Origin: Methanomassiliicoccaceae archaeon
Lineage (GTDB): Archaea; Thermoplasmatota; Thermoplasmata; Methanomassiliicoccales; Methanomassiliicoccaceae
Direction of reading: 5' to 3'
DNA length: 64,000 nt
NCBI GenBank assembly: GCA_963728405.1
Contig: CAVSJV010000004.1
Coordinates: 64,001 to 128,000, forward strand
Below the pieces are notes generated by a model, which did not search any database, was not told the origin of the DNA, and was given only the letters and a program-made list of their open reading frames with translations. A program made the position numbers and the translations under genes. The first letter of the stretch is position 1. Every line of letters starts with the position of its first letter. Positions 15,995-48,400 of the stretch are shown here, piece after piece.

Positions 15995-16906
15995 TTGAAG
16001 GACGACTATCTGGATAAAGAGCTAATGGAGCGCTTACAGGTCCCGCCGGGGAAGAAGGTAAAGCTAGACGATTACGACACAGGCTGGGCCCAGAACGAGG
16101 GGATGAAGGAGGAGGGAAAGGAAGGCATAAAAAAAGAAGCCAGAGAGCTATTGGATAAAAACATCAAAGAGCTGGCAGATGCCCAAGAACTGCTGTGGGC
16201 CAGCGATTCCTATTCCTTGCTTATAGTGCTGCAGGGCATGGATGCCGCAGGCAAGGACGGGACCATCAAGCACGTCATGTCCGGCATAAACCCGCAGGGA
16301 TGTCACGTTGTTAGCTTCGGGCCCCCCTCCCAGGAGGACCTGGCTCACGACTATTTGTGGAGGGTGGTCAAAGCTCTCCCAGAGCGGGGGCGCATCGGGA
16401 TTTTTAACCGTTCTCATTACGAGGAGGTGCTGGTGGTCCGGGTCCACCCCGAACTTCTGAAAGCCGAGAACATCACCAGAGGCAAGATTGACCAACAGGT
16501 GTGGAAGGACCGCTACCAGGACATCAACGATTTCGAGCACCACCTCGTTCGGAACGGCACATTGGTGCTCAAGTTCTTCCTGCACATCTCCAAGGAGGAG
16601 CAGAGGCGCCGGTTCCTGGAACGCTTGGAAGATCCCGAGAAACAATGGAAGTTCACTTCCTCGGACATCAACGAGCGTGCGTTCTGGGACGATTACCAGA
16701 AAGCGTACCAAGATGCGATCGGGGCGACCTCAACGCCGTGGGCGCCGTGGCACATCATTCCCGCCGATTACAAATGGGTAGCCCGAACTCTAGTGGCCGA
16801 GATAGTGACCTCTCGGATCAGGTCCCTGGACCTGGAATATCCTAAGCCCACCAAGGAGGAGCTGAAATTGTTGGAGAACGCGAAGGAGAAGTTGAAAACG
16901 GAATGA
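15995..16906 (+). CDS. ppk2: Polyphosphate kinase 2, class III type
   Basis: QGMDAAGKDGTIKHV, HDYLWR, PERGRIGIFNRSHYEEVLVVRVH and KFFLHIS motifs. Confidence 0.93.
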   Translation: MKDDYLDKELMERLQVPPGKKVKLDDYDTGWAQNEGMKEEGKEGIKKEARELLDKNIKELADAQELLWASDSYSLLIVLQGMDAAGKDGTIKHVMSGINPQGCHVVSFGPPSQEDLAHDYLWRVVKALPERGRIGIFNRSHYEEVLVVRVHPELLKAENITRGKIDQQVWKDRYQDINDFEHHLVRNGTLVLKFFLHISKEEQRRRFLERLEDPEKQWKFTSSDINERAFWDDYQKAYQDAIGATSTPWAPWHIIPADYKWVARTLVAEIVTSRIRSLDLEYPKPTKEELKLLENAKEKLKTE

Positions 16907-16970
16907 ATGAGAACTCGGTACCCAGGGAGAGGTCCTTTCAAGATTCTATGAGCCCGTGGGTATCGTTCGG

Positions 16971-18253
16971 TCATCCCATCGTCGACCATCGGAGGAACCA
17001 TTTACGGACCGCCCACAAGGCCAGACCCATAATGATCACTCCGGCACCAAGAAATATGGCGTCGGGTGAGATGAGGAAGGCCATCAGGAGCAGTAGCACG
17101 CAGGATAGGGATCCAAAGACTGGAACGAACTTCGGATACTTTCGATAGGTCGTCTTCAAACGAAAGGCAGAGATGTTGGCGAACATGTAATAGAACAGCT
17201 GGGCGAACATGTTCCTATGGTGACAACGCTGACCAGATCTACGAATAGGACCAGGATAACAATGAACGCCCCGGTCAACACAACGGCATAAGAGGGAGTG
17301 CCATATCGTGGATGAACTCGGGCCATCGCCTTGGGGAGGTCCCCCTGGCGAGCCATAGCATACTCCATCCTGGAAACACCGAGGATGGTGGTGATGAGAA
17401 CGCTCGCTGTAGCCAGCACCCCGCCGATGGAAATAAGGAGCACAGCGAACTCGCTTCCAGTGATGCTCATAGCATGAGAGAGGGGTGAACTCGATGAGGA
17501 CAGACCGGGACCGCCCACTAGGCCGACCGCCACTAGGGCGATCAGGATGTAGAAGACGGTCGAGATGGCCAGCGACCACAGGATGGCCTTCGGCACGTTC
17601 TTTTTTGGCTCCTTGACCTCAGCCGCTATCACCGTGACCCGCGCGAACCCGCCGAAGGCGAAGAATATGTAGTAGGCACCCACGAACGTCCCTGTGCTCA
17701 AAGGTTGAAAGGGCTGAAAATTTGCCAGGTTAATGAACATTAGACCAAAAACGATGAAAAAGGACAATAGGATCATCTTGGCAAGTACGATGGCGTTGTT
17801 GAGCTCGGCAGTGTGGCTCGCCCCGTAATAGTTCATGACCGTGAAGATGATGCAGATCGCCGCGGCGACGATGGGGACACTTAGCCCCGGAAATATCACT
17901 GCCAGATAGTAGGCGAAGCTGAGAGCTACCGCTGCCCCTATCAATGTATTGGATAGTGACCACATCCATCCCGAAAGAAAACCGGCCAAGGGGGAGATGA
18001 GCTTGCCGGCATAGTCGTAAACACCACCCTCTCGGGGATCCCATATGGTCAGCTCGATCAGGCTCAAGGCAGTTACAGATGACACAGCAGCAGCTAGGAC
18101 GATGGAGATGACGATCGCTGAGCCCGCATAGCCGGCGGAAATGCCTGTGACCACGAAGATGCCCGATCCAATGATGGCTCCGATGTTGATCGCTATCGCG
18201 TCCACTAGGCTGAGCGAAGGCGTCAGGCCCGGGATCGCCCTGAGCTTAGGCAT
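16971..18253 (-). CDS. APC family amino acid permease; apparent +2 frameshift at 17207-17212
   Basis: GAIIGSGIF, FAFGGF and AEVKEPKKNVP motifs, about 12 TM segments. Restoring AACGTT joins VTIGTFAQLFYY. Confidence 0.88.
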
Positions 18254-18671: not shown

Positions 18672-21203
18672 ATGGTTTCGGCAAAAAATGCGTCTGTTCA
18701 ACAGAGTGGAGAGTCAGTTCAGGGCTCGATCCAAGATTATGAAAAAATGGGTATCGCCGAAACATTTGCCAAACTATCCAGCAGTGAAAAAGGATTGACA
18801 GACGCGGAGGCCCACGAACGCGTGAAGCGGTTCGGCTACAATGAGCTCTTAGAGAAAAAGGTCAATCCAATACTTAAGTTCCTGAGCTACTTCTGGGGGC
18901 CCATACCCATCATGATCATGATCGCGGTAGTACTGTCCGCGATCATCGGCCACTGGGAGGATTTCTTCATCATCCTGGCGCTGCTGTTCTCGAACGCCAT
19001 CGTCGGTTTTTATCAGGAGAGGAAAGCGGATAACGCCATCGAGCTGCTGAAGCAGAGGCTCGCTCCGGAGGCCCGGGCGTTCCGCGATGGTAAATGGGTC
19101 CAGATACCTGCAAAAGAGCTTGTCCCGGGTGACGTCGTCCGCGTGCGCCTCGGCGACATCGTTCCTGCGGACATAAAGCTCTTCAAAGGCAAGTATCTCG
19201 AGGTGGACCAATCTGCGCTCACCGGCGAGTCGCTGCCAGTGGAGAAGGCCGAGAACGATGTAAGTTATTCCGGCTCGTTGATCAGAAAGGGCGAGATGGA
19301 TGCCATAGTTGTCACAACTGGAATGAACACATACTTCGGAAAAACTACGAAGTTAGTCGGAGAAGCAAAGGCGGCCAGTCACTTCCAGCGCAATGTGGTG
19401 AAGATCGGTGACTACCTGATCGTCATCGACGTCGTCCTGGTCGCTTTGGTCCTCATCACCGCCATCCTGCGCCACCAAAGTCTCTTGGACACTTTACAGT
19501 TCGCCCTGGTCCTCACCATTGCCGCCATCCCGGTGGCGCTGCCCGCGGTGCTCTCGGTGACCATGGCCATAGGGGCGATCGTCCTGGCGAAGAAGGAAGC
19601 GATCGTCAGCAAGCTCGTGGCCATCGAAGAGATGGCGGGCATGGACATCCTTTGCTCGGACAAGACCGGCACCATAACACAGAACAAACTGACCTTGGCC
19701 AAGGTCATTGGTTATGGTGATACCAGCGAAGCGGAGGTCATGCTGAATGCCGCCCTCGCTTCCCGAGCCGAGGACAAGGATCCCATCGATAGTGCCATTC
19801 TCCAGAGCATCGATTCAATGGGTGAAGTTAAGGAACAGGTCAGCAGCTACGAGATCAAAGAGTTCGTTCCGTTCGATCCGGTTATCAAACGCACCGAGGC
19901 TCAGGTCGTAAGCAAGAGTGGGGAGTTTCGCGTGACCAAGGGCGCGCCCCAGATCATTCTAGGCATGGTGGAGAACAAGGAAGACCTTGGCACCCAGGTC
20001 CAGAAAAACGTCCAGGACCTAGCCTCGATGGGATATCGGGCCTTGGGAGTTGCACGCCGAGAAAAGGACGGATGGCGATTACTGGGAGTCATTGGCCTGC
20101 ACGATCCCCCGCGCTCCGATTCTTCTGTAACGATCCGTAAGGCACAGCAGATGGGGCTTGAAGTAAAGATGGTTACTGGAGACCATTCCGCCATCGCCAA
20201 GGAGATCGCCCAAGAGGTCGGTCTGAGCACCGATATCGTACCATCAGAGTCGTTCGTTAACATGCCGGAAAAGCAGGCTGCCGATGTGGTGGAAAAGGCC
20301 GGTGGCTTCGCCGAGGTCTTTCCTGAGCACAAGTACCGAATCGTTCAACTGCTACAGGGAAAGGGTCACATAGTCGGCATGACCGGAGATGGGGTCAACG
20401 ACGCTCCAGCGTTGAAGAAAGCGGATGCCGGGATCGCGGTGGAAGGTGCTACGGACGCCGCCAAGTCGGCCGCGGACATCGTTCTGACCCGTCCCGGCCT
20501 AGGTGTGGTCATCGACGCCATAATCGAAAGCAGGAAGATATTTCAAAGAATGATCAATTACTCGATCTACCGCATATCGGAGACTATCCGGGTGCTATTC
20601 TTCATCACTTTATCCATTCTCGTATTCCAGTTCTACCCCATAACCGCCTTGATGATCGTTCTTCTTGCTCTATTGAACGATCTGCCCATTCTGACCATCG
20701 CCTTCGATAATGTCCTTTACTCTGCAAAACCGGAGAAATGGGACATGCGCACCCTCCTTCTGGTGGCGATGTACCTCGGGATGATCGGCGTGGTCGAGTC
20801 GTTCATCGTCCTCTACATCGGACTGAACGTGTTCCACCTGGACCAGGCATCGCTCCAATCGTTCATCTATCTAAAGCTCTCAGTGGGCGGGCACCTCGTA
20901 CTGTTAGTTGCTCGTACCAAAGGGCATTTTTGGTCAGTGAGGCCAGCACCCCAGTTGCTGTGGGCGATAATCTTGACCCAGACCACTGCCACCCTCCTGG
21001 TGATATTTGGAATATTGCTGCCTCAACTGGGTCTCGTCTACGTCGCGTTCATCTGGGTCGAAGGTCTGCTAGTGTTCATCATCACAGATTTCCTCAAGGT
21101 GGGCCTATACGACATCCTGATCAAGAGAGGAGTGGTGGCACAAGGAATATCCGCTCCGGAGGATGGGGGCACGCCCAAGGGGGAGCCAACCCCCTCCAAG
21201 TGA
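18672..21203 (+). CDS. Plasma-membrane H+-transporting P-type ATPase (P3A), copy 1
   Basis: DQSALTGES, IPVALPAVLSVTMA, CSDKTGT, KGAPQ, MTGDGVNDAP, SRKIFQRM and M6 ALLND motifs. Confidence 0.95.
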   Translation: MVSAKNASVQQSGESVQGSIQDYEKMGIAETFAKLSSSEKGLTDAEAHERVKRFGYNELLEKKVNPILKFLSYFWGPIPIMIMIAVVLSAIIGHWEDFFIILALLFSNAIVGFYQERKADNAIELLKQRLAPEARAFRDGKWVQIPAKELVPGDVVRVRLGDIVPADIKLFKGKYLEVDQSALTGESLPVEKAENDVSYSGSLIRKGEMDAIVVTTGMNTYFGKTTKLVGEAKAASHFQRNVVKIGDYLIVIDVVLVALVLITAILRHQSLLDTLQFALVLTIAAIPVALPAVLSVTMAIGAIVLAKKEAIVSKLVAIEEMAGMDILCSDKTGTITQNKLTLAKVIGYGDTSEAEVMLNAALASRAEDKDPIDSAILQSIDSMGEVKEQVSSYEIKEFVPFDPVIKRTEAQVVSKSGEFRVTKGAPQIILGMVENKEDLGTQVQKNVQDLASMGYRALGVARREKDGWRLLGVIGLHDPPRSDSSVTIRKAQQMGLEVKMVTGDHSAIAKEIAQEVGLSTDIVPSESFVNMPEKQAADVVEKAGGFAEVFPEHKYRIVQLLQGKGHIVGMTGDGVNDAPALKKADAGIAVEGATDAAKSAADIVLTRPGLGVVIDAIIESRKIFQRMINYSIYRISETIRVLFFITLSILVFQFYPITALMIVLLALLNDLPILTIAFDNVLYSAKPEKWDMRTLLLVAMYLGMIGVVESFIVLYIGLNVFHLDQASLQSFIYLKLSVGGHLVLLVARTKGHFWSVRPAPQLLWAIILTQTTATLLVIFGILLPQLGLVYVAFIWVEGLLVFIITDFLKVGLYDILIKRGVVAQGISAPEDGGTPKGEPTPSK
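18910..19063 (+). repeat. 154-bp exact direct repeat, copy A (in H+-ATPase 1)
   Basis: Identical by eye to 41035-41188 (tcatgatcatgatcgcgg...gaagcagaggctcgc). Confidence 0.9.
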
Positions 21204-21286: not shown

Positions 21287-21748
21287 ATGTACTATAGAGA
21301 AGGTAGCCGAGAGCGAGAGTTCGAGCCTGAAATTAGTCCGCCACCGATAATACCTCCTCTGATCGAGATCGTTCATCATGCCCTTTTCTTGCGGGCCGAA
21401 GTATTGCAGAAAGAATATCCTGGCACAAGGGTTGAGCAGGAATTTCAGGACGACGAGCCTCGGGGCATTCTTTGGCTAATAGCGGACGATGGCACTGTGA
21501 TTAGGAAAGAGTTCGTGGAAACATCCTTCTCTGCCGACAGGCCGGAGCGGGACGGGGAGTACATCGATGCCGTTCGAAGATTTCGACACATTGCTATCCA
21601 TTATCCTGGTTTGATCATGCCGAAGGAGCATGTTATAAAGCGTATCTCTGACCTGTTGATCAATGCCAGGGCAACTGAGTTACCTGAGGAAGTTACCATA
21701 CAGGGCTTTCTTTATGCCGAAGATGGGAGAACCATCTTGGAGGCATGA
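21287..21748 (+). CDS. Hypothetical protein
   Basis: 153 aa ORF with normal composition and an upstream TTTTATC box. No recognised family. Confidence 0.6.
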   Translation: MYYREGSREREFEPEISPPPIIPPLIEIVHHALFLRAEVLQKEYPGTRVEQEFQDDEPRGILWLIADDGTVIRKEFVETSFSADRPERDGEYIDAVRRFRHIAIHYPGLIMPKEHVIKRISDLLINARATELPEEVTIQGFLYAEDGRTILEA

Positions 21749-22105: not shown

Positions 22106-22540
22106 TCAGGGCACTACGAGCACGGGCACCTCGGAATGCTGAACGGTTCGGGAAGATACGCTCCCCAGGAGGAACTCCTGGACCCCGCTGACGCCCGTGG
22201 CACCGACGACTACGAGGTCATACCCCTTCTTCGATCGGTTTAAGAGCAGTTGGGCCGGATTACCCATCTCCACCACGGTATCAAAGGCAACCTTCTGCTC
22301 ATCCATGATCTTACCGGCCCGATTGAACATCTCGCCAGCGAGTATGTCCTCACTAGGTACGTAGGTTGGCTTGGAGATGAAACGATCGGTATAGATCGAG
22401 TCCGTGGCCACGAACATCAGCGTCACCGTGGCCTCATAGTGCGCGGCCAATTCAGCAGCATAGCCCGCTGCCCTATACGATCCTTCTGAGCCATCGATCC
22501 CTACTAGTATCTTCTTGATTGCAGGCATATTCTCAAGCAA
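22106..22540 (-). CDS. Universal stress protein (UspA family)
   Basis: ILVGIDGSEGS...GNPA...LVVVGATG...LLGSVS...PVLVVP. Confidence 0.92.
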   Translation of the reverse strand: MLENMPAIKKILVGIDGSEGSYRAAGYAAELAAHYEATVTLMFVATDSIYTDRFISKPTYVPSEDILAGEMFNRAGKIMDEQKVAFDTVVEMGNPAQLLLNRSKKGYDLVVVGATGVSGVQEFLLGSVSSRTVQHSEVPVLVVP

Positions 22541-23007: not shown

Positions 23008-24898
23008 TCACTGAAGGGGTCCGTTTGAATGAGTGTTCGTCCGCTCATTGAGATCATGCTCGACGGCCTTGGCACCTGCAGCGTGCTGTGGATGTATCTT
23101 TCCCGTATGGCCGAAGTGAGCGAAAGAGACCGCAGCATTGATGAGGCCTATATGTGAAAGAGCCAGAGGATAGTTGCCCAGCTGAGCACCATTCGAGGGC
23201 TCGATCTCCTCCGCCAAAAGGCCTAGGGGCCCCATCCTGGCCAGGATGCCCTCATAGATCGTCTGGGCCTCATTCAACCGTCCCGCCCTGATCAGCGCAA
23301 CCACCAACCAGAAATGTACATAGCACAAAGGACCCCTCTTTTCCGCTGACACCTTCCGGAGCGCTTGAATATCGGTAACAGAGACCGTCGATGACCAAAT
23401 GTTTTAAGGTCGCATCGATGGTCGAGACCATCCGGGGATCCTTGCCGTCGATAAAACCAATCGTAGGTAGTATGAGATTGGAGGCATCCAGGGTCTCATC
23501 CTCATAGGACTGCTTGAATGCGCCAAGACTCTCGCTCCATCCTTTTTCGAGCACCTCCGCCTTGATGAGATCTTGCTCATGGCGCCATTTGGTGACATTA
23601 CCGGGAAGGCCGATTTTAAGGGCCATCTCGCTGCCTTGTTCCAAAGCGGACCAAAGCATGGCTTTGCTGTGGACGAAGTGCCTCACTCCCCCGCGCACCT
23701 CCCAGATGCCATTGTCTGGCTCGTGCCAATGGTCGGCCGCCCAATCGAGGATACCTCTGATTTGGGGCCACATGGTATGGGGATCATAACTCCCTATGTG
23801 CCACGCGAAGTGTATTGCACTTATCACCTCACCATAGACATCCAGCTGTTCCTGCTGGTAGGCCGCGTTCCCGATACGCACCGGTCGGGAATCGCGATAA
23901 CCACGCAGGTGATCCAGCGTCGTCTCGGTGGGATTATTTTCATGGATGATCGGATACAATATCCTTATGCCCGTTCCTTCTAATTCCACTGTGTGAACAA
24001 TCCAGTCGAAGAAAGGCTTCGCATAGTCCATGTATCCAGATAGCATCAGGGCATAGAGAGTAAAGGAAGCATCTCGGATCCAATTAAGTCGGTAGTCCCA
24101 ATTTCTTTCACCACCGATCGTCTCAGGAAGTGAGGTCGTGGGGGATGCTATGATCGCCCCCGAAGGATTGTAAGTCATGAGCTTCAAGGTCAGAACGCTG
24201 CGCAGGACTTCTTCCCGGTAAGGCCCGTGGTAGGTACATTTATCAACCCAGTCCTTCCAGAATGATAGGGTCGACCTGAGACCCTCATAGGGTGAGAACT
24301 GGAGCAGCTCAGGATCGTATTGGACCCCTAAGATGAATGAGACCTTTTCGCCAGCGGCCATCCTAACGTCTGCGTAGATCTCCCTGTTCATGTGATCAAT
24401 TCGCCAAGTGCTTGGCGATATCATCTGGTACGGACCGAATATTGCCCGGCTTCCATCGATATCAAAAAGAGGAAGGGAGCGGGCATAATCGGGCCGGGGG
24501 GCGCATCTACAGATTATGTCGGCGGTGCCCTCGGTGCACTCCAAGATCCGAACGAGCCTGCTGGGATGGTATATCGGGGAGGACGGCTTCTCCAGGTCGA
24601 CGTACATGAAGTCCCTAAGAACCACTTTTCCCGTATCACAATTGAATGTGGTCTCTAGGACATTGGTGTGCTCCACATACTTGTGAACGGACTCGCATGC
24701 CAAGGTTGGCCTAATGCTCCAGAACCCCCCCTTATCCACATCGAGTATTCGGGCAAAGAGCGATGGCGAATCGAATCGGGGCAGGCAGAGCCAATCAATG
24801 GAGCCCTGACTGCTGACAAGTGCCGCGGAGTGGCAGTTCCCGATAAGGCCATAATCCTCGATCGGTCGATAGGAAGTCGAAGACAGTTCATCGTTCAC
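23008..24898 (-). CDS. GH15 glycoside hydrolase (trehalase/glucoamylase-like); apparent frameshift near 23313
   Basis: IEDYGLIGNC, CLPRFDSPS, PTTSLPE.IGGERNWDYR, QLDVYGE, GIWEVRG, EGSFVLCTFW, GLLAEE and GNYPLALSH motifs. Confidence 0.9.
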
Positions 24899-25313
24899 TA
24901 GCTTTTCCCTCCATGATCGAAAATATAAATGGAGTAAGTCTCATCGACACGAACCTGGGGTGACTGTGAGATAGAGATGATTTGCCATATGCGCGCATGG
25001 GGTCGCATCTCATCACTCGCTACATCGAACCCAATCGGACGGCACGCGGGCCCCCACTGCGGTATTCGACGCATCAGATGCTTTAGTAACATATGCTAGA
25101 TGATGAGTGTCGATAGGGTCATAACAATTTTCCTTCCGCCTGGGCAGGGGGTGCACAAAAGGCTGCTGCACCAGGATGCCTTCGGCGGCCAAACCCATTC
25201 TGCCCCATAATAAATGATTAAATAGCAAGAGCTTTGAATAATTGAATAATTGGGAACGACTTGTTCGGTAATCCTTCACGAGGGCCGTTCCCCTATCAGT
25301 GGAGGACTGGAAG

Positions 25314-35585: not shown

Positions 35586-35900
35586 GATATCCTCCTTTCC
35601 GACAATTTTGTCTCGGCGCTTTTCCTTTAGTGCTAACAGGAGAGTATTGAAATGTTCGGATGACGTCCTGGAACAATCGTCTGCAGGCCTTCCCCACCAC
35701 ATTCGGGCCTCTATTCCGAGAAAGGATGATCACATTGCCTATTCTTTCGTATCATCCATCTGGTCCTCGAACGTAGGACTTACATTCTCGTGCGCCATGA
35801 ACACGTTCATTGTTACCGGGAACCCCTTATCGGCGGTTTCTGACGCTACTGGCCCCCCCATACATCGGGCATCTGGATATCGATTCTTCCCTGCGACCCT
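35586..35900 (-). pseudogene. Decayed 3' remnant of a transaldolase domain upstream of pgi
   Basis: KNRYPD...ETADKGFPVTMNVFMAHENVSPTFEDQMDDTKE and FNTLLLALKEKR resemble the Tal C-terminus (KNPxYxD...DTVNTMPxxTLxAFxDHGxVxxTLE; FxxLLxALxEKR). Confidence 0.6.
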
Positions 35901-37337: not shown

Positions 37338-37541
37338 TTCTGCTGCTGAACAGTCAACTGAGATGAAATCTATCTTCCTACCGATAGGGTTTGAAGAACG
37401 CCCAGATGCCCCATTCCATCTTTTATCGATTCTGTGGAGAGAGCCATCATGGGATTCTTTTTATCTCAAATTCCCTTAACCGTGGCCGAGGCCTTAAGCA
37501 CGGTCCGCTCTAACTCCCCAAAAGTAAGAAAGAATTTTTAT

Positions 37542-39218
37542 ATGCCACTGTTGCGAAGTATCCGTCGCCCATTCAGTGAGGACCTCGGGACCTATCTAAG
37601 GAAATGGGTACCTATCAGCATCGTTATCGGTATCCTCGCCGGACTTGGGGCCATTATTTTCCAGTTCCTCCTCGATGTGATCTGGAACGCCTCCTACAAC
37701 ACATTCTCGATACCATGGTATATCGTCTTGTTCATCCCGGCCATCGGGGGCCTTTTGGCCGGGATCATCATAATGAGATGGGCCCCCGAGACCGCCGGGT
37801 CCGGTACCGATCACATCATCGATGCAGTGCATCATCATGGTGGAAAGGTCCGGGCGAGGATCGTCCCGATCAAGATCGCCGCGTCGGCATTGACCATCGG
37901 GAGTGGCGGCAGTTCCGGGAACGAAGGTCCGATCTCCCAGATCTCCGGAGGCATCGCCTCGTTCATCGGCACCAAGCTGGGGCTGAGCAGGTCGGAAATG
38001 CGCATACTGGTGATCGCAGGAATGGCGGCGGGGTGGTCGGCCGTGTTCAGAGCGCCACTGGGATCAGCCATCTTTGCTATCGAAGTGCCTTACAAGAACG
38101 ACTTTGAGGGCAATGCGGTCATTCCATCGATCATCTCCAGCGTGACCTCCTATCTCGTCTTCATCCCTTTCGGCGGCGCCGACCCCATATTTTCTTCGAA
38201 CCTACCAAGCGTCAACATCACGGCCCAGCTGCTCACCACCGTTCTGATCCTGGGTGTGATCATAGGTCTTGTAGGGATCCTCTTCGTTCTTCTGATGAGA
38301 AGGATGACAAATGCCTTCCGCCGCTCCTCCCTCCCTCTGCCAGGAGCTACCTTCTTAGGGGGGCTAATGGTGGGGATCATCGGATTGGAATACCCCCAGG
38401 TGCTCGGCCTGGGAGAGGGTGCTATTCAGCTGATCCTTGGTGGCACTCTGATCACCATCGGCCTCCTCGTAGGCCTGCTTCTTGCCAAGATGATCGCCAC
38501 GTCGCTGACGGTTGGATCTGGTGGAAGCGGAGGTATCTTCTTCCCTTCCTTGATGATCGGCGGCGCGGTCGGCGGTATCATGGCAATGGTCCTGAACTTG
38601 CAACCTTACCCGCTCTTTGTATTGGTAGGCATGGGCGCCATGATGGCCGGAGTCTCCAAGACCCCGATCGCCGCCGCTGTGCTAGTCACTGAGATGGTGG
38701 GCGGTTTCGTTGTTCTCATCCCGCTCATGGTAGCATCCACAGTGAGCTATTTGGTATCAGGAAAGTATTCTCTGTTCGAGAGTCAGATCACCAGCGGCAG
38801 GATCGGTGTGGATTTCTCCACACTAGGCGAGGTCAAGGTAAAGGACGTCATGTCCGGAGGCCCCGTCTTCATTGACCTACAATCGTCCTCAGGAGAGGTA
38901 TTGAACCTGATCAAGGAACACCCACATCATCTGTATCCTGTTGTTCAGGACGATCGTGTGGTCGGCATCATAACAAGGGAGTCCGTTCTCCAAAAGAAGG
39001 ACCAGGATTTCACCCCGTCGGATCTGATGAGAATAGATTTTCAGTCCATTTCACAAACCAGTTCGGCCGCCAATGCGTTCGAGATCATGACGTCAAAAAG
39101 AGTGTCCGCGATCGTGGTTGTCCAATCCGACGAGAGCGATGGACTGGCAGGAATGATCACCAGGATCGACGTTTTCAATTCCATGGAGCATATGGACGAG
39201 AGGCACCACGCCTATTGA
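37542..39218 (+). CDS. ClC chloride channel/transporter with C-terminal CBS pair
   Basis: GSGTD, GSGGSSGNEGP, FRAPL and GGSGGIFFP motifs followed by CBS domains. Confidence 0.92.
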   Translation: MPLLRSIRRPFSEDLGTYLRKWVPISIVIGILAGLGAIIFQFLLDVIWNASYNTFSIPWYIVLFIPAIGGLLAGIIIMRWAPETAGSGTDHIIDAVHHHGGKVRARIVPIKIAASALTIGSGGSSGNEGPISQISGGIASFIGTKLGLSRSEMRILVIAGMAAGWSAVFRAPLGSAIFAIEVPYKNDFEGNAVIPSIISSVTSYLVFIPFGGADPIFSSNLPSVNITAQLLTTVLILGVIIGLVGILFVLLMRRMTNAFRRSSLPLPGATFLGGLMVGIIGLEYPQVLGLGEGAIQLILGGTLITIGLLVGLLLAKMIATSLTVGSGGSGGIFFPSLMIGGAVGGIMAMVLNLQPYPLFVLVGMGAMMAGVSKTPIAAAVLVTEMVGGFVVLIPLMVASTVSYLVSGKYSLFESQITSGRIGVDFSTLGEVKVKDVMSGGPVFIDLQSSSGEVLNLIKEHPHHLYPVVQDDRVVGIITRESVLQKKDQDFTPSDLMRIDFQSISQTSSAANAFEIMTSKRVSAIVVVQSDESDGLAGMITRIDVFNSMEHMDERHHAY

Positions 39219-39264: not shown

Positions 39265-40129
39265 CTAGGGTTTGATGCCCATGCCCTTAAGCCCATGAAG
39301 GATCTCTTCCATCACCTCAGAAACGATCAGGTCCTTCTTTTCAAATTCCCGTATCCAGATGTGCACATCCAAGGCTATTGAGGAAGCGTTGATGCTAGTG
39401 ATGAGCACCTGGGGCTGAAACCGAGCCGTATCTCCACTATAGTCAAGAAGTCTTCGAACTCGGGGCAGTTGTATGATCCTTCGAATAATGGACTCTTCCT
39501 CATTTGGAACTATGGGCAGGATGCGCCTGTTGGCTTCTATGATCTTGAGAATCAGACCCTTCACTGCGTCGTAGTTGGCTTGGAAGGGGACCTCAAGCTT
39601 CAGCGTGACCTCGACCAAGGCCGAGCGAGTGTAGTTGGTGACCTTTGAGCTAAGTATGTTGGAATTAGGTATTACGAACAATCTTCCATCGGAACTGCGC
39701 AGGACCGTGTTGGTGAGGTTAATGTCCTTGACCTGAGTCAGGCCAGTGTCACCGATTTCTATCCAATCTTCCAGTTGTATCGGCCGCTCTAGGAGAATAA
39801 GGAAACCGGCGATGACGTTCTGGACAACCTGCTGTGAGGCGAAGGCCACTGCCACACCAATTATACCTAGGGAGGCAGCAAGCTCACTGAAACTTAGGCC
39901 CAGTGGACCAAGCACGAGGACCAGTCCGACGAACAGACCAACTAGAAGAATGGTATACTCGACCGTCCGGGATATCATCTTAGAATATCGCAGGCTTTCC
40001 AACCTTTCGTCAAGCCAACAGTCGAAAAAGTGCGTAAAGTATTCGAGAGGTGAGAACGGAGAAGAATATCACTGCTACAGCAAGAATGACCAAGCCGACA
40101 TCTACACCAAATATCACCACCGCGGCCAT
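39265..40129 (-). CDS. Small-conductance mechanosensitive channel (MscS family); apparent frameshift at 40018-40022
   Basis: GIIGVAVAFASQ..NVIAG...ERPIQLEDWI...IPNS...VTNYT. The hydrophobic N-terminus MAAVVIFGVDV joins after restoring CGACGT. Confidence 0.88.
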
Positions 40130-40817: not shown

Positions 40818-43314
40818 ATGCCCATTAATGAATCTGATACGGCGAAGCAGGTCCAGGCGGACATCGCGGCCACGAGCACGGCCACACTGTATGAACGGCT
40901 GTCTAGCAGCGAGGGGGGGCTCAGCTCCGATGAGGCTAGGGTGCGCCAGCGGAAGTATGGCTTGAACGCCATCAGTGAGAAGAAGGTAAGCCCCCTCATC
41001 AAATTCCTCCAATACTTCTACGGCCCCATCCCGTTCATGATCATGATCGCGGTAGTACTGTCCGCGATCATCGGCCACTGGGAGGATTTCTTCATCATCC
41101 TGGCGCTGCTGTTCTCGAACGCCATCGTCGGTTTTTATCAGGAGAGGAAAGCGGATAACGCCATCGAGCTGCTGAAGCAGAGGCTCGCCTTGACCGCGAA
41201 GGTGCTTCGGGACGGGAAGTGGGGGATGATCCCCGCACTCGAGCTGGTTCCCGGTGACGTGGTGCGGGTCCGGCTTGGAGACATCGTTCCTGCGGATGTG
41301 AAGCTGATCGAGGGGCAATTTCTCGAGGTCGATCAATCTGCGCTCACCGGCGAGTCGTTGCCGGTTGAGAAGACGTTGAACGATGTGGCCTACTCCGGTT
41401 CCATCGTTCGCAGGGGAGAGATGAACGCCCTGGTGGTGAACACCGGTATCCACACCTATTTCGGCAGGACGACCAAACTGGTGGAGGAGGCCATCAACGT
41501 AAGCCACTTTCAGAGGAACGTGGCGAAGATAGGCAACTACCTGATCCTCATCGTCGCCATCCTGGTGCTGATCGTGTTCGTCGTTGCCCTTCTGCGCCAC
41601 CAAAGCCTCTTAGACACTTTACAGTTCGCGCTGGTGCTCACCATCGCCGGCATCCCAGTGGCGCTGCCCGCGGTCCTATCTGTAACTTTGGCCGTAGGGG
41701 CCGTCATCTTGGCGAAAAAAGAGGCCCTGGTCAGCAAGCTCACCTCCATCGAGGAGCTGGCCGGGATGGACATCCTGTGCAGCGACAAGACCGGGACCAT
41801 CACCAAGAATCAACTATCCGTGGCCCAGATCGTAACCTACGACGTCTCCCAAGCGGACATGCTGCTGGCGGCCGCCCTCGCTTCCCGAGCCGAGGACAAG
41901 GACCCCATCGATAACGCCGTCCTAGAGAAGGCCACAGCCACCTCAGGCGCGGGGGAAAGAACAGTCGATTTTAAGGTTAAGCGTTTCACCCCCTTCGATC
42001 CGGTCATCAAGCGCACCGAAGCTGTTGTGGAGGGCGATGAAGGCGACTTCCAAGTGGCCAAAGGGGCCCCCCAGGTAGCGTTGCAGATGGCAAGGAACAA
42101 GGAGGCGATCCAGGCTCAGGTCAACAAGGGCGTGGAGGAGATGGCCAGATTGGGTTATCGCGCGCTAGGAGTGGTTCGCAACGATGGCGCTGGCTGGAAA
42201 TTTCTAGGGGTCCTGGGGCTCCAGGACCCACCACGGGATGATTCCTCCGAGACAGTCGCGCAGGCGAAACGGATGGGGGTCGATGTCAAGATGGTGACCG
42301 GAGATCATACTGCCATCGCCAAGGAGGTCTCCCGGCAGGTCGGACTGGGAACCAATATCGTGTCCGCAAAGGCACTTCTCGATACGCTGGATCAGCAAGC
42401 GGAGGAAATGATCGAGAACGCGGACGGAATTGCCGAGGTGTTCCCGGAGGCCAAGTTCCGCATCGTGGACCTGCTGCAGAAGAAGGGGCACATAGTCGGC
42501 ATGACCGGAGATGGGGTGAACGATGCGCCCGCCCTTAAGAAGGCCGACGCCGGCATCGCGGTGGAAGGTGCTACCGACGCGGCCAAGTCAGCGGCGGACA
42601 TCGTGCTCACGAGACCGGGTCTGTCGGTCATCATAGACGCCATCATAGAAAGCCGCAAGATCTTCCAGCGCATGATCAACTACTCGATCTACCGCATCTG
42701 CGAGACCATCCGCTTGCTGTTCTTCGTGACCTTGTCCATCATCGTGTTTCAATTCTACCCCATCACCGCGCTGATGATCGTGCTCCTGGCACTGCTCAAC
42801 GACCTGCCGATCCTGACGATCGCATATGACAAACGTGCTCTATTCAGCCAAGCCAGAAAGATGGAATCTCCGGACCGTGCTCATCGTCGCCACGTTCCTG
42901 GGAATGATCGGCGTGGTGGTGTCGTTCTTTACCCTTTACTTGGGCTTGGAGATCTTCAAGCTGGACCAAACATCGATCCAATCGTTCGTCTATCTGAAGC
43001 TATCAGTGGGCGGACACCTGGTCGTTCTGGTCGCCCGCACCAAAGGGCCATTCTGGTCAGTGAAGCCCGCCCGAAGGCTGCTTCTGGCCATCGTTTTAAC
43101 CCAGGCAGTGGCGACCGCCTTAGTACTGTTCGGGATCTTGTTGCCCCAGCTAGCCCTGGCCTACGTGGTGTTCATCTGGGTGGAGATGTTGATCGTGTTC
43201 GTCATCACCGATTTCCTGAAGGTGAGGCTCTATAATTACCTGATCAGAAAGGGGGAAGTGGCCATGGGCATCTCATCCCAGACCGAACTTCCAGGAAGGC
43301 TCAGCAGCAATTAG
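40818..43314 (+). CDS. Plasma-membrane H+-transporting P-type ATPase (P3A), copy 2; apparent +1 frameshift at 42831
   Basis: Same motifs as copy 1. Removing one A from AAACGT restores IAYDNVLYSAKPERW, collinear with copy 1. Confidence 0.93.
41035..41188 (+). repeat. 154-bp exact direct repeat, copy B (in H+-ATPase 2)
   Basis: Identical by eye to 18910-19063. Confidence 0.9.
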
Positions 43315-43577: not shown

Positions 43578-44846
43578 ATGGATGCGTACATCGTACTCTT
43601 AGTGGCCGCCCTGTCAGTTTCAGTGGGTTTTATTGCAAGCTATCTCTTCAAGCAGTATAAGGCCCCCGATGTGTTACTGTTAATTGGATTTGGTCTCGTC
43701 ATCGGGCCGAGCGCCCTTGGTTTCATAGACGCTACTTTCGCCAGCAAGCTCGTGGGGATGATGCCCTATGTGGCGGCTCTTGCGCTGGCGGTGATCATGC
43801 TTCAGGCGGGCATGGGCCTGAACATTCGCGATGTCATCATCTCCTTTAAGCAGGCGCTCATCCTGACGATTCTAGCATTCATCCTTTCTGTTAGTATGAT
43901 CACCGCCCTCTGCATGATCGCCTTGGGCTGGACCATCGGGGAAGCCCTACTCCTTGGTTTCATCCTGGGAGGAACGAGCGGGGCAGTGGTCATTCCCCTG
44001 CTATGCGGCATAGGTGCTTCGAAAAAGACCAAGGTCATGCTGACCCTCGAGGCGGCAATAACCGACGTGCTCGTCGTCGTTCTCGCCCTAACCGTCGTTG
44101 CTCTCATGGTGACAGGTTCCGCCAACCTAACAAGAGCCATAGCCGGCATCCTGACCGCCTTCTTCGCTTCCGCCTTCATCGGCATCATAGGCGGCATCAT
44201 CTGGCTTAAGGTCCTGGCATTCATGAAGGACCACACCTACTCCTACATCATTACCCTGGCCGCCCTCCTTGCCATATTCGCCGGAACCGAGATAATTGTG
44301 GACAGGACAGGTGGCGGGGCCATAGCCGCGTTGGTCTTCGGCCTGACTCTGACCAACGGGCACGAGCTTAACCGATTTATCAAGAAAGGTGAGAAGATCG
44401 TTAGTTGTGAGGACAAGATTAAAAATTTTCACGAAGAAATCTCCTTTTTTGTTCGGACCTTCTTCTTCATCTACCTGGGCGTCGTCCTCTCTACCATTCA
44501 TTTCCAGCCAGCCCACATAATCATTGGTATTGCCATCGTCCTAGCGTTGTTGATCGGTAGGCTCATCTCGGCCATGGCAGTGAACCGCTTCTGGGATATG
44601 GCCAATATAGACAGGATGACCATCGTGTTCATGCTGCCTCGTGGGCTCTGTGCGGCGGTGCTGGCCTCGGTGCCATTATCCTATGGCGTGGTCAGCGGAG
44701 AGATCGGGGACCTCATCCTTGGAACAACGGCGGTGGTCATCATCCTAACGACCTCCATAGCATCGGTGGGGGCGTTCATCATCGACTGGCAGAGCAAGGC
44801 CTGCCCTTCTGTCGAGAAGGAGGCGCCGTTCAAGCAGCCAGAATGA
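43578..44846 (+). CDS. Cation:proton antiporter (CPA1/NhaP-like)
   Basis: PDVLLLIGFG, TSGAVV, LEAAITD, FFIYLG, GRLIS and PRGL motifs; about 12 TM segments. Confidence 0.88.
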   Translation: MDAYIVLLVAALSVSVGFIASYLFKQYKAPDVLLLIGFGLVIGPSALGFIDATFASKLVGMMPYVAALALAVIMLQAGMGLNIRDVIISFKQALILTILAFILSVSMITALCMIALGWTIGEALLLGFILGGTSGAVVIPLLCGIGASKKTKVMLTLEAAITDVLVVVLALTVVALMVTGSANLTRAIAGILTAFFASAFIGIIGGIIWLKVLAFMKDHTYSYIITLAALLAIFAGTEIIVDRTGGGAIAALVFGLTLTNGHELNRFIKKGEKIVSCEDKIKNFHEEISFFVRTFFFIYLGVVLSTIHFQPAHIIIGIAIVLALLIGRLISAMAVNRFWDMANIDRMTIVFMLPRGLCAAVLASVPLSYGVVSGEIGDLILGTTAVVIILTTSIASVGAFIIDWQSKACPSVEKEAPFKQPE

Positions 44847-45485: not shown

Positions 45486-47054
45486 CTAAACCTTCCTGTA
45501 CCGGATTATCTCTCGCCAGAACACTGGTGTCATTACAGCAAAGACTGTCAGGAATTCCAATCGGCCGGCCCACATGGTGAAGATCAGGGCCACTTTGGCC
45601 AGATCAGGAAGGCCACCGAACGTTCCCATCGGACCTAGCTGACCGACCCCGGGGCCAGCGTTCGATAGGGTGGTAATGGCCGCGCTCATCGAAGTGACCG
45701 GCTCAATGCCCAAGAGCACAAGAGCAACCGTGCAAGCGAGGGCGGTGGCGAAATAGCAGATGGCCACGGCCATCATCGATGAGATCGTTTCCTCACCCAA
45801 ATGACGCCCGTCGAGCTTGAGGGAGAAGATAGCCCTCGGATGCACGGTCTTGTAGATGGACGCATAGATGAACTTTCTTGAGAGTATGAAACGAACGATC
45901 TTGATACCTCCGGCCGTGGAGCCGGTGCATCCTCCGATGACGATGAGCGCCAGTAGTAGGAATAGCATGCTGCTGCTCCATAGGGAGAAGTCGGCCGTGG
46001 CGAATCCCGTGGAGGTCATGCAGCTGATCACCTGGAAGGCGGACGTCCGGATCCCCTGCTCAAGATCAGTGAACGTGCCGCTCCATAGCAGGACGAGCCC
46101 GATCAGGGTGGCAAGGACCACCAATGCCGAATACATCCTGAACTCGGCATTCCGCCAGTAGGTTCTTCCCTTACCGGTCGCGATCGCCTGAAAATGCAGA
46201 TAGAAGTTGGTTCCCGCAAGGAACATGAATGCTATGATGATCCATTCCACGAACGGGTTCTGGTAGAACGCGATGCTTTGAGCATGGGGGGAGAAACCAC
46301 CGGTGGACATGGTCGAGAACATCACCACCATAGAATCGTACATCCCTATCCCGGTCAGGAGGAGCAGGAGGAGCTGAACGACGGAAAGACCGAGATAGAT
46401 GTAATGGAACTTTTTCGCCTCTTCCTGTATGCGCAGTGAGATGTTCTGAACGTTGATGCCAGAGAACTCGTTCTTGGCCAGGCTTCTTCCTGCGATCCCT
46501 AACATAGGGAAGACCGTGACGAAGATCATGACGATCCCTGCCCCGCCTAACCACTGGGTGAAGCTCCTCCAGAACAGAAGGCTCCGAGGCCAAGCTTCGA
46601 TGTTGAACATGATCGAGGAACCAGTGGTGGTGAAGCCGCTCATGGTCTCGAACATCGAGTCGATGACGCCCATCCCATACATCATGTATGGGATCGCACC
46701 GAAGACCATGACCACCAGCCAGCCGGTCGTTACTACGAACAACGCCATCGTCGGTCGGGTCTGCTCGGCCGCTTGGTAACGAAGCAATAGGGGCAGACCG
46801 ATGGACGCGCTGAGCAATGGGGGGTAGATCCAGGGGCGGGGGTCCTCATTATAGATTATTGCAGTGGCCAACGGCGCGATGAACGCCAGGGCCAGGTAGA
46901 AGAAAAGCAGGCCAAAAAGGTAAGCAAAGGTGTTCTCCTTCCGGGTAATTTTCTCTATGACCATATAGCGCGTCAAGCCATGCTGCCTGAGCAGCATCTT
47001 GAAACACTTCCATGTCCTTTTCCACATGCCCGTATGGATCATCTTTGCGCCCAT
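45486..47054 (-). CDS. trkH: Trk potassium uptake permease
   Basis: FETMSGFTTTGSS, QWLGGAG, STGGF, GGCTGSTAGGIK, LSNAGPG and WAGRLE motifs. Confidence 0.94.
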   Translation of the reverse strand: MGAKMIHTGMWKRTWKCFKMLLRQHGLTRYMVIEKITRKENTFAYLFGLLFFYLALAFIAPLATAIIYNEDPRPWIYPPLLSASIGLPLLLRYQAAEQTRPTMALFVVTTGWLVVMVFGAIPYMMYGMGVIDSMFETMSGFTTTGSSIMFNIEAWPRSLLFWRSFTQWLGGAGIVMIFVTVFPMLGIAGRSLAKNEFSGINVQNISLRIQEEAKKFHYIYLGLSVVQLLLLLLTGIGMYDSMVVMFSTMSTGGFSPHAQSIAFYQNPFVEWIIIAFMFLAGTNFYLHFQAIATGKGRTYWRNAEFRMYSALVVLATLIGLVLLWSGTFTDLEQGIRTSAFQVISCMTSTGFATADFSLWSSSMLFLLLALIVIGGCTGSTAGGIKIVRFILSRKFIYASIYKTVHPRAIFSLKLDGRHLGEETISSMMAVAICYFATALACTVALVLLGIEPVTSMSAAITTLSNAGPGVGQLGPMGTFGGLPDLAKVALIFTMWAGRLEFLTVFAVMTPVFWREIIRYRKV

Positions 47055-48400
47055 TAGGGATTCACCGGGATGTCCAGTTTGAAAATCCGCTCGAGGACGG
47101 AGACGTCCATCTTATCTGCATATATGAGCAGGGCATCTCCTTCCTTGATCACCATGTCCCGGGCGGGTAAGATAGGTCCGTCATCGGTTATAACCATGGC
47201 AATGATGGACCGTTCTGGCAGCTCGATCTCCTCGACGCTCTTGCCATTGATACGGCATCTCGGTCCCACCATCAGGCTGATCAGCTCATTCTTGAACCCT
47301 TCCATCAGGAGCAGGACCTCATGCTCCGGAACGGTCTGCTTGATGATCTCATTCGCGACTACTTCGTAGTAGCTTACGGCCGAATCGATGCCCACCATTT
47401 GGAAAATATCCTTGTATTCTTGTTTGGAGAATGAAGTGATGGTCTTGGTGACCCCTAGATGTTTTCCTACTAAACAAGCGAGGAGGTCCCCCTCCTCATT
47501 ATTGGTGGCGCAGACCAGCACATCGGTCATTCCCACGTTTTCATTGCGCAGGACCAACGGGTCAGAGCCGTTATCGTTTATTATGATCGCGCGGTTGAAC
47601 TTTTGAGCCAGCTCTTTGCATCTGGATTCGTTCTTCTCGATCAACCGTACAGATATGCTTTCTTTCTCCAACATGCAGATCAGGTACTCGGCGACGATTC
47701 CTCCACCGATGATCAGCACATCCCTTGGCAACTTTACCGAACCGAGGAAATGGTCGAATTTGATGATGTCATCTTCCTTGCCGATGACGATGACCTCATC
47801 GCCGATGCGGAGAGCGTCACCCTCCAACGGAATGAAGGCATCCCCGTTCCGGTGGATGCAAAGGATCTTGCACCCCCCTGGAACAGGCAGTTGGAACAAC
47901 GGCACATTGGCGATATCATGACGGTCGTGAGAGAACCTGAACTTAGCAACCTCGAGGCCATACGCGGGGATGGCCTCGTGATCGATAGCGTTCTCCAACA
48001 GAGCTATCTTCTTCATCTTCGTAGCGACTAGATATTCAGGAGAGATGACGTGATCTACATTCAGGAAGTTGGATACGCGGCCCCCCTCAGTGTAATCTTG
48101 GTCCCGCATTCGGGCGACGGTCCTTAGGTTCGGGAACATTTTCTTGGCGACGAGGCAGGCGAAGATGTTTACCTCATCGCTTTCAGTCACCGCAAGGAAA
48201 AAATCGATATCTCCATCCAGGACCCCTTGGAGCACATGAGGGCTGGCGCCATTGGCGTGGAGTACCCCGACATTCAGGGTGTTAACGACATACTCGTACC
48301 GTTTCTCATCCTTCTCCACAACCATCACAGAGTGTTGGTTTGATAGGAGACGAGCTATGGTGTATCCAACATTCCCGGCACCGACAATTACGATGTGCAT
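47054..48400 (-). CDS. trkA: Trk potassium uptake NAD-binding subunit
   Basis: Tandem RCK domains (GAGNVG; GGGIVA). TAATG overlap with trkH. Confidence 0.94.
   Translation of the reverse strand: MHIVIVGAGNVGYTIARLLSNQHSVMVVEKDEKRYEYVVNTLNVGVLHANGASPHVLQGVLDGDIDFFLAVTESDEVNIFACLVAKKMFPNLRTVARMRDQDYTEGGRVSNFLNVDHVISPEYLVATKMKKIALLENAIDHEAIPAYGLEVAKFRFSHDRHDIANVPLFQLPVPGGCKILCIHRNGDAFIPLEGDALRIGDEVIVIGKEDDIIKFDHFLGSVKLPRDVLIIGGGIVAEYLICMLEKESISVRLIEKNESRCKELAQKFNRAIIINDNGSDPLVLRNENVGMTDVLVCATNNEEGDLLACLVGKHLGVTKTITSFSKQEYKDIFQMVGIDSAVSYYEVVANEIIKQTVPEHEVLLLMEGFKNELISLMVGPRCRINGKSVEEIELPERSIIAMVITDDGPILPARDMVIKEGDALLIYADKMDVSVLERIFKLDIPVNP

Follow-up and report, generated by a model that had tools for sequence, protein, structure and literature searches.

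Gene clusters for ion and pH homeostasis can be organized around a P-type pump, and the closest described system to the one reported here is the "pH homeostasis" cluster of "Candidatus Nitrosotalea devanaterra," which, in the part of its description considered here, comprises mntH, a carbonic anhydrase gene, uspA, a P-type ATPase gene labeled "mgtA," and alsD (PMC4836417). We describe a cluster of this kind in a methanogenic archaeon: a 33-kb block (here called the island) in which two proton-pump genes stand beside genes for sugar breakdown and polyphosphate use. It lies within a 64-kb window (the whole stretch of DNA that was analyzed, G000:C4:64001-128000) of genome G000, which comprises 2.73 Mb in 18 contigs and has a completeness of 93.75%. 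According to the same part of the description, the Nitrosotalea cluster resembles the island in that it is horizontally mobile, has a P-type ATPase gene at its center, next to a gene for a universal stress protein (USP), and was proposed to serve acid adaptation (PMC4836417). It differs from the island in that the genes listed there include none for glycolysis, PPK2, ClC, or Trk and in that its ATPase is annotated as a Mg2+ pump. The Nitrosotalea loci in our own survey (see below) carry a 60%-identical ATPase with a USP gene 46 nucleotides (nt) upstream, for which NDEV_1079 is a candidate counterpart only.

The pumps of the island are comparable to the P3A pumps Pma1 of fungi and AHA2 of plants. 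Like them, the first pump (ATPase 1) exceeds the TIGR01647 cutoff and has the DKTGT motif, an Arg in transmembrane segment 5 (TM5), and an Asp in TM6. In contrast to the eukaryotic pumps, it lacks long regulatory N and C termini at a length of 843 amino acids (aa), its H+ transport is predicted, and the genome holds two paralogues in the island and a third on contig C3. A 2023 review, in the part considered here, places prokaryotic P3A ATPases mainly in methanogens and gives their transport function as undetermined (PMC10654040).

Two further systems share parts of the island. In the acid resistance of Escherichia coli, ClC-ec1 acts as an electrical shunt for amino acid decarboxylase/antiporter systems. 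The island likewise contains a ClC homologue and APC-family permeases, but no decarboxylase was found in it by Pfam, the permeases fall well short of the AdiC, GadC, and CadB models, and the ClC protein has C-terminal CBS domains and a Val at the second Glu of "IIEE." Thermococcus kodakarensis uses a modified Embden-Meyerhof (EMP) glycolysis that depends on phosphoenolpyruvate (PEP) synthase. The island similarly has ppsA within its glycolytic cluster, in a genome in which no pyruvate kinase was found; in contrast to T. kodakarensis, its sugar kinases are of ATP-dependent families (ROK and PfkB) and not ADP dependent, so that no AMP would be generated by them, and the direction of PpsA is presumed.

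Within the genus of G000, "Ca. Methanomassiliicoccus armoricus" has been predicted from its genome to carry out glycolysis/gluconeogenesis and trehalose synthesis and degradation, the same pathways as those predicted here (PMC7824343). This prior prediction tells against the statement, made in the original prediction from which our analysis started, that Methanomassiliicoccales are not known to catabolize sugars. Clustering, a bacterial-type second enzyme set, and a link to a P-type pump are not mentioned in the part of that article considered here, its supplements lying outside. Nor was a description of pump-PPK2 or pump-glycolysis neighborhoods found in the open full-text literature, subscription journals and supplements being outside the search.

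Results

The genes of the island were assigned by Pfam and NCBIfam profile searches, which located every gene named in the original prediction at positions 15995 to 48400 of the window (Table 1). The genome also encodes mcrA, which identifies the organism as a methanogen, and was compared with those of 40 relatives and, at the insertion site, of 10 congeners. In 8 of these 10 congeners, glyA (14182-15505 in the window) and a SIS-type phosphoglucose isomerase (PGI) gene (49689-50726) are about 0.7 kb apart, with a small SHOCT-domain gene as the only thing between them. The block is thus missing from this site in those eight genomes, in agreement with its predicted location between core blocks. 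The closest relative, G003, whose flanks are 83 to 87% identical at the nucleotide level, has a different, 6.85-kb insert at the glyA/PGI site, which holds a GH15 paralogue and DUF1269-like and VIT-like open reading frames (ORFs); G006 is too fragmented there to be informative. The core flanks are collinear with those of relatives on both sides of the block, on a contig of 286 kb. The stretch from about 15.6 to 48.7 kb of the window is a genuine lineage-specific chromosomal insertion or supercluster in a Methanomassiliicoccus-type methanogen. It is not a mobile element, since we found no tRNA in the 64-kb window and no repeats at the borders of the block, and none of the ORFs scanned matched an integrase or transposase in Pfam.

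The genes of the island are of the type found in the family Methanomassiliicoccaceae. They are 63 to 81% identical to their homologues in the family (ATPase 1, 69 to 78% to its orthologues), the most divergent being the ROK glucokinase (at most 47%) and the CPA1 antiporter (at most 51%), which have no close counterpart in any of the 40 relatives. The gap-ppsA-pfkB-fba-gpmA block has matches of 66 to 81% nucleotide identity in 16 of the 40 relatives, all of the same family and all at other chromosomal places. A family-wide cluster can be recognized that consists of pgi, a P3A H+-ATPase gene, and a 2-hydroxyacid dehydrogenase gene, followed by gap-ppsA-pfkB-fba-gpmA(-pgk); the dehydrogenase gene usually precedes the EMP block in relatives, and pgk follows gpmA at the loci of 13 of them. 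At most 10 kb separate ATPase 1 from cluster genes in 9 of the 12 family genomes with an orthologue (G000, G007, G008, G011, G013, G014, G019, G021, and G022). Elsewhere in the family, trkHA and APC2 occupy other loci, the neighbor of ClC in G011 and G013 is the ATPase 2 orthologue, and G001 has ClC-CPA-TrkHA in one contiguous run.

In a FastTree phylogeny, where supports are local SH-like values and not bootstraps, the two ATPases belong to a clade of Methanomassiliicoccales that is monophyletic; ATPase 1 and ATPase 2 are old paralogues, and ATPase 2 has a clade of its own. The block has a GC content of 54.6% (genome, 57.5%); among 146 windows of the genome, 7% lie below this value, and 9% deviate more strongly in tetranucleotide composition. 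The family-type genes, the nesting of the ATPases in the clade of the order, and this mildly atypical composition led us to reject a bacterial chimera, the join with bacterial DNA that the original prediction had named as a refutation. Judged by these comparisons, the island consists of native family genes that have been rearranged, joins blocks that are kept apart in relatives, and is not bacterial DNA.

At seven named family loci, the pump is flanked by pgi and by a gene for a 1,335- to 1,358-aa HAD/trehalose-phosphatase/GH65 fusion. In G000, such a fusion gene (with two frame changes) lies directly upstream of pgk (one frame change) at G000:C5:119311-124595. Since the GH65 fusion and pgk bracket ATPase 1 and the EMP cluster in relatives, the C5 locus may be the ancestral locus of this segment of the island. 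A simple excision from it was rejected as an explanation because the strands of the GH65 fusion and pgk genes do not fit a plain removal of the intervening segment.

We then considered the pumps. The next-best family for ATPase 1 is MgtA-type, with 396.6 bits, below that family's own cutoff, and its best PDB matches are Pma1 and AHA2 (E of about 1e-183). Aligned with the Pma1 chain 7vh5_A, it has CSDKTGT, and its R634 and D670, both invariant in 7 family orthologues, correspond to chain residues 695 and 730, which we take to be the TM5 Arg and TM6 Asp in yeast numbering. The role of these two residues in P3A pumps, with the TM6 Asp as H+ acceptor/donor, is taken from the part of the review considered here (PMC10654040). 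These features place ATPase 1 in the P3A group, as had been proposed from the sequence, with H+ export as its predicted activity. ATPase 2 is 70% identical to ATPase 1, and its last ~150 residues are in another frame. The third P3A copy (G000:C3:47011-49464) is 58 to 66% identical to ATPase 1 and is likewise split between frames. Downstream of ATPase 1, the 153-aa protein has no Pfam or NCBIfam match, and an Atlas search gave no lead; copies that are 47 to 60% identical adjoin ATPase 1 in G011 and G013.

The PPK2 protein exceeds the TIGR03709 cutoff (382 versus 247 bits) and reaches 390 bits on NF042973, below the cutoff of 450. Its best PDB matches over the full length are 6an9 and 6au0 ("Polyphosphate:AMP phosphotransferase, PPK3 Class III"; E = 2e-91), followed by 5lc9. 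With class III enzymes as its nearest solved relatives, the earlier assignment to class III stands, and the formation of ATP from AMP or ADP is predicted. A second PPK2 locus at G000:C2:168817-170205 has two adjacent PPK2-like matches (29% and 40% identity), which could be one two-domain PPK2.

Next, we looked into what surrounds P3A pumps in other lineages. Species-representative genomes were searched with an alignment of seven ATPase 1 orthologues, and the best 80 of 126 confirmed relatives were taken as survey loci, which fell into 22 taxon groups. All ORFs within 6 kb of the pump were clustered without bias and then assigned by Pfam. As reserve genes, we counted those for PPK2, GlgP/PGM, TreT/GH65, gap/gpmA/ppsA, and ADI/OTC. 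For 73 loci, the flanking sequence reached 3 kb or more on one side. In 32 of them, from 10 taxon groups, a reserve gene lay no farther than 6 kb from the pump (genes of carbohydrate reserves or glycolysis in 19, PPK2 in 8, and ADI/OTC in 5). The density of reserve genes was 15.3 per 100 kb in the first 2 kb from the pump; over four further bins of 2 kb each, it was 3.3, 3.7, 3.0, and 1.0. Numbers also fell with distance when Methanomassiliicoccales were left out and a single Accumulibacter locus was used (counts of 23, 5, 2, 1, and 0). These results indicate that the proposed feeding of P-type pumps by ATP made independently of the proton motive force has comparative support and appears to extend beyond this genome; the single 20-gene module in which it had been embedded does not hold.

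The most frequent neighbor was USP (15 loci in 6 taxon groups, 12 of them within 1.5 kb), followed by an APC permease (11 loci, 8 groups), a HEAT-repeat protein (11 loci, 5 groups), ppsA (9 loci, 5 groups), PPK2 (8 loci in 4 groups, 7 within 1.5 kb), alpha-glucan phosphorylase (7 loci, 3 groups), a TrmB-MEDS regulator (7 loci, 3 groups), and inorganic pyrophosphatase (7 loci, 2 groups). Five Accumulibacter loci and one from Crenothrix (L116-L119, L123, and L112) have the order ATPase-PPK2-SulP on the same strand, SulP being a SulP/STAS transporter, and the thaumarchaeal locus L075 has ATPase-PPK2-USP; PPK2 starts 175 to 235 nt downstream of the pump, on the same strand, in the 5 Accumulibacter loci and in one thaumarchaeal locus. 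Operons with carbohydrate genes were ATPase-PGM-GAPDH-GlgP-gpmA-ACD-like (L101) and ATPase-PGM-ppsA-GlgP (L110) in Dehalococcoidales and TreT-ATPase-ppsA-GlgP in Chloroflexi (L091). A thorarchaeal operon (L074) reads ATPase-APC-OTC-ADI, and the Nitrosotalea locus L071 reads M50/CBS-USP-ATPase-PhaC-like. At L101, L110, and L091, ppsA, gap, and gpmA are 58 to 62% identical to Methanomassiliicoccaceae proteins and the ATPases 54 to 57%; the higher identity of the former suggests a transfer of cluster genes between domains.

The sugar-breakdown genes were compared with their counterparts in G000 and its relatives. The two frames of the GH15 gene align to an intact 634-aa GH15 of G003, which is nearest to the archaeal trehalase TreH1 yet under its cutoff. 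G000 has five GH15 paralogues (C4:1749-3545, C5:223570-225447, C5:334164-335978, C13:172714-174601, and window 23008-24898), and it is the C5:223570 copy, rather than that of the island, with which the GH15 at the G003 glyA site shares 89% identity. The ROK glucokinase gene aligns to a C5 paralogue in frame 2 and then frame 1. The 2-hydroxyacid dehydrogenase is under all NCBIfam cutoffs, with phosphoglycerate dehydrogenase (PGDH) and glyoxylate reductase models on top; its top PDB match is a D-lactate dehydrogenase (3kb6; E = 1e-62), with PGDH 1wwk and then glyoxylate reductase close behind, so lactate as an end product is a guess. The ppsA gene is a single ORF of 818 to 944 aa in 10 relatives, and the G003 orthologue reaches 1,172 bits on NF005057. 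For PfkB, the only committed-step kinase of the genome, the G023 orthologue scores 317 bits on TIGR03828 (cutoff, 292). The nearest structure to the aldolase is PDB 4moz, a "fructose-bisphosphate aldolase" (E = 4e-102); its G003 orthologue has 492.5 bits on NF005321 (cutoff, 420), and its frame junction is backed by at least 13 relatives. The bacterial-type PGI reaches 649.8 bits on NF007080 (cutoff, 712) over profile positions 358 to 946 of 949.

Outside the island, G000 encodes an archaeal fructose 1,6-bisphosphate aldolase/phosphatase and a type II glyceraldehyde-3-phosphate dehydrogenase (GAPDH); an archaeal-type PGI/phosphomannose isomerase lies at the island edge, enolase in the window flank, and phosphoglycerate kinase (PGK) and triose-phosphate isomerase (TPI) elsewhere. 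The EMP set of glucokinase, PGI, phosphofructokinase, aldolase, TPI, GAPDH, PGK, phosphoglycerate mutase, and enolase is all present in the genome, with fructose 6-phosphate or fructose 1-phosphate as the substrate of PfkB. No match to pyruvate kinase (PF00224) was found in the 93.75%-complete genome, while all 14 of 14 control genomes matched, and there are two PpsA/PPDK-like genes. By family assignment, the glycolytic genes of the island are a separate, second, bacterial-type EMP set (glk, pgi, PfkB kinase, class I aldolase, type I GAPDH, and 2,3-bisphosphoglycerate-dependent phosphoglycerate mutase [dPGM]). Together with GH15 and ROK (and GH65 in relatives), this set would carry trehalose or glucose down to pyruvate; either PpsA or the product of the second PpsA/PPDK-like gene would take the place of pyruvate kinase.

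Five island genes contain frame changes: one each in the GH15, ROK glucokinase, aldolase, and ATPase 2 genes and at least four alternating frames in ppsA between about 29010 and 29860, where a nucleotide alignment with ten intact orthologues gave eight frameshifting indels between 29009 and 29856. Like changes occur in the flanks when compared with 3 or 4 intact relatives, namely, in topA for topoisomerase I (~2920), a 233-aa gene (~4323 and ~4635), enolase (~7914 and ~8210), a TtuA-like PP-loop gene (~13337 and ~13780), and ribH for lumazine synthase (~52615). Interruptions were also seen farther away in the genome, in TPI, two PGK copies, the type II GAPDH, the GH65 fusion, and the third ATPase. 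The type II GAPDH gene (G000:C17:75360-76376) has an internal TGA, and the neighboring PGK gene (C17:71559-72716) has a TGA and a TAA within its family match; we regard these, too, as most likely errors of the assembly. It is not possible that all such essential genes are defective; indel errors are therefore present in the assembly, and the frame breaks of the five island genes are most likely errors of this sort rather than gene decay. A pseudogenization specific to the island was rejected in view of the like changes in topA, enolase, the TtuA-like gene, ribH, TPI, PGK, type II GAPDH, and the GH65 fusion. The island genes should thus be treated as probably intact, and an apparent 520-aa pfkB-aldolase fusion is unreliable. 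Under this explanation, the packing of eight indels within 850 bp of ppsA remains odd.

Table 1. Features of the island, with positions in the window
Feature	Position	Strand	Assignment and remarks
Left junction, glyA to ppk2	15529-15994		congener similarity stops at ~15505-15589; no tRNA or border repeat
PPK2, single domain, class-III-like	15995-16906	+	PF03976, E = 3e-67, residues 47-276 of 303
APC-family amino acid permease 1 (APC1), C-terminally short	17156-18253	-	AA_permease_2, E = 2e-46, profile positions 1-341 of 427
P3A-type H+-ATPase 1, intact	18672-21203	+	TIGR01647 (plasma membrane proton-efflux ATPase equivalog), 1,036.8 bits (cutoff, 615.5)
153-aa acidic protein, no assigned family	21287-21748	+	downstream of ATPase 1; conserved in two relatives
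USP	22106-22540	-	PF00582, E = 1.5e-28
GH15 glycoside hydrolase, trehalase/glucoamylase-like	23008-24898	-	Glyco_hydro_15 and TREH_N; frame change near 23300
D-isomer 2-hydroxyacid dehydrogenase	25299-26261	+	2-Hacid_dh_C, E = 8e-59
ROK-family glucokinase	26454-27415	+	ROK, E = 1e-51; frame change near 27190
Type I (bacterial-type) GAPDH	27543-28592	+	TIGR01534, 403.5 bits (cutoff, 367.2)
PEP synthase (ppsA)	28625-31080 (approximate)	+	PPDK_N and PEP-utilizers pieces in separate ORFs
PfkB-family hexose-phosphate kinase (1-PFK/PFK-2/LacC clade)	31103-~32060	+	PfkB, E = 1.5e-50
Class I (DhnA-type) aldolase	~32051-32969	+	DeoC/LacD domain; frame change near 32615
gpmA, bacterial dPGM	32966-33700	+	NF010713, 360 bits (cutoff, 305)
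PGI	33909-35702	-	PF00342; resembles the PGI half of Tal-Pgi fusions
APC-family amino acid permease 2 (APC2), 445 aa	36000-37337	+	AA_permease, E = 4.5e-56; TIGR00909 under cutoff
ClC with two CBS domains	37434-39218	+	Voltage_CLC, E = 3e-89, and CBS
MscS-type mechanosensitive channel	39265-40002	-	MS_channel_2nd, E = 1.7e-20
P3A-type H+-ATPase 2	40818-43311	+	Pfam architecture as in ATPase 1; frame change near 42830
Cation/H+ antiporter (Na_H_Exchanger, CPA1)	43578-44846	+	PF00999, E = 6e-34; weak K+/H+ antiporter matches
TrkH, membrane subunit of K+ uptake	45486-47054	-	PF02386, E = 6e-55
TrkA, regulatory subunit of K+ uptake	47054-48400	-	NF007039, 358 bits (cutoff, 293)
Right junction	48401-48745		congener similarity restarts at 48683-48752, at the SHOCT-domain gene

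Among the transport genes, APC1 aligns just to residues 4 to 331 of APC2, and its last ~110 residues are missing relative to paralogues. The ClC protein keeps the gating Glu (NEGP versus REGP in the reference) and has IEV where the reference has IEE, so that the second Glu of the motif, which we take to be the proton-transfer Glu203 of ClC-ec1, is a Val; a Val at this site is typical of channel-type CLCs. In the flank before the island, a small ORF with one copy in the window (12086-12526) has three tandem paralogues (32 to 69% identity) in G003 (L032:10560-12102).

Discussion

We propose a joint reading, to which we give an even chance, in which the island is a native supercluster where ATP from reserves would drive P3A pumps when methanogenesis is idle and in which the frame breaks are assembly errors. 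Four blocks are joined in it. Block A holds PPK2, an APC permease, P3A H+-ATPase 1, the small protein, and USP. In block B, the trehalase-like GH15 and the ROK glucokinase would have been added to the family cluster of dehydrogenase, GAPDH, PpsA, PfkB, aldolase, and dPGM, with PGI. Block C contains APC2, ClC-CBS, MscS, P3A H+-ATPase 2, and the cation/H+ antiporter, and block D contains TrkHA. Operating beside the archaeal gluconeogenic enzymes, block B would turn stored trehalose or glucose into ATP, with the step from PEP to pyruvate assigned to PpsA or a PPDK-like enzyme since no pyruvate kinase was found. The class-III-like PPK2 would form ATP from AMP or ADP and polyphosphate. The reserve-derived ATP would then drive the P3A pumps, which would expel H+ and hold the membrane potential and the cytoplasmic pH when methanogenesis stops, and the adjustment of charge, K+, and pH would fall to Trk, ClC, and the antiporter. 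A role in acid stress is favored by the present results no more than one in starvation or osmotic stress.

The association across phyla matters more than this one island. Tentatively, and with confidence short of even, we extend the proposal to prokaryotic P3A H+-ATPases at large, which may be the output of a widespread module for "reserve-powered membrane energization" that joins glycogen, trehalose, polyphosphate, or arginine operons to a pump and a USP. Starved or stressed anaerobes and slow growers would spend ATP from substrate-level reactions on membrane potential and cytoplasmic pH, in lineages as different as methylotrophic methanogens, Dehalococcoidia, Asgard archaea, Bathyarchaeia, acidophilic ammonia oxidizers, and the polyphosphate-accumulating Accumulibacter. 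The supercluster of the window would be the most complete form, bringing together the two pump paralogues, the two fuels, and the ion shunts.

Several points weigh against these proposals. The whole gene set occurs together in none of the 40 relatives, where it is spread over 3 to 5 separate loci. This is the scattering that the original prediction had itself named as grounds for rejection, and it leaves the original interpretation partly supported: the link between pumps and reserve ATP has comparative support, and the 20 genes do not travel together. The EMP cluster occurs without a close ATPase 1 orthologue in five family genomes (G001, G002, G003, G010, and G015), so the pump is not required for the pathway. 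By score, 1-phosphofructokinase is the best fit for the PfkB kinase, whose nearest PDB structures are fructose-1-phosphate kinases. The cluster could run toward trehalose synthesis instead, ppsA being classically gluconeogenic. The eight ppsA indels, if real, would mean that the pathway is broken in this strain. The composition of the block, at the 7th percentile of GC content, is mildly atypical. As for the survey, its loci all come from proteins that have two peptide motifs in common with the query, which is a bias; many are kin and not independent (15 from Methanomassiliicoccales and 6 from Accumulibacter); part of the list of reserve families was picked after the neighbors had been seen; and the comparison of near with far positions in the same loci is its sole control. 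Finally, ClC, Trk, CPA1, and MscS genes are flat near P3A pumps (counts of 2, 1, 1, 1, and 0 over the five bins), so that no general tie of these transporters to such pumps is seen, the adjacency of ClC and ATPase 2 being a matter within the family.

An alternative that we regard as unlikely is that the island serves osmoadaptation and ion homeostasis, and not energy supply or acid resistance, with P-type pumps that may move another cation. TrkAH would take up K+ after hyperosmotic shock, MscS would release solutes after downshock, the antiporter and ClC would handle Na+ and Cl-, the APC permeases would import compatible solutes, and GH15 and the EMP enzymes would turn over trehalose as an osmolyte. 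The gene set is indeed a classic osmotic toolkit, three of its parts are contiguous in G001 (ClC-CPA-TrkHA), and the statement of the review on the transport function of prokaryotic P3A ATPases leaves room for another ion (PMC10654040). Trehalose synthesis and degradation in Methanomassiliicoccus have moreover been proposed as a stress response in the parts of two articles considered here (PMC7824343 and PMC12363242). However, the neighbors that recur across phyla are PPK2, glycogen phosphorylase/PGM, lower glycolysis, and arginine deiminase, not osmolyte transporters or Trk/MscS, and the TM5 Arg and TM6 Asp, by which H+ pumping is defined in Pma1 and AHA2, are conserved in ATPase 1.

It is also doubtful that the island has no functional unity at all, the glyA/PGI site being a rearrangement hot spot that collects accessory genes whose adjacency is a historical accident. 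The different insert of the closest relative at the same site fits such a hot spot, as do the scattering of the blocks in relatives, the five GH15 copies of G000, and the position of pgk, which follows gpmA in 13 relatives and was left on C5 beside the GH65 fusion. Against it, the additions specific to G000 (GH15 and the divergent ROK, the latter between the dehydrogenase gene and gap) would complete a route from trehalose or glucose to glucose 6-phosphate, and conserved counterparts of the sub-blocks exist elsewhere. That the region is a chimeric join within an error-prone assembly, for which the many indel errors could speak, is very improbable given the 286-kb contig with collinear core flanks on both sides, the family type of all island genes, and the occurrence of pfkB, gpmA, the Tal-Pgi-type pgi, trkH, trkA, and the CPA1 antiporter gene as single copies found nowhere else in G000, which are thus not duplicated contaminant copies.

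If the proposed supply of pumps by reserve-derived ATP is right, the tight ATPase-PPK2-SulP arrangement of Accumulibacter is a candidate for the anaerobic generation of a proton motive force from polyphosphate. These neighborhoods give the question of what prokaryotic P3A ATPases do a concrete and testable setting, that of pumps fed by ATP from reserves. For H2-dependent methylotrophic methanogens, they suggest a way in which cells may survive gaps in the supply of their substrates.

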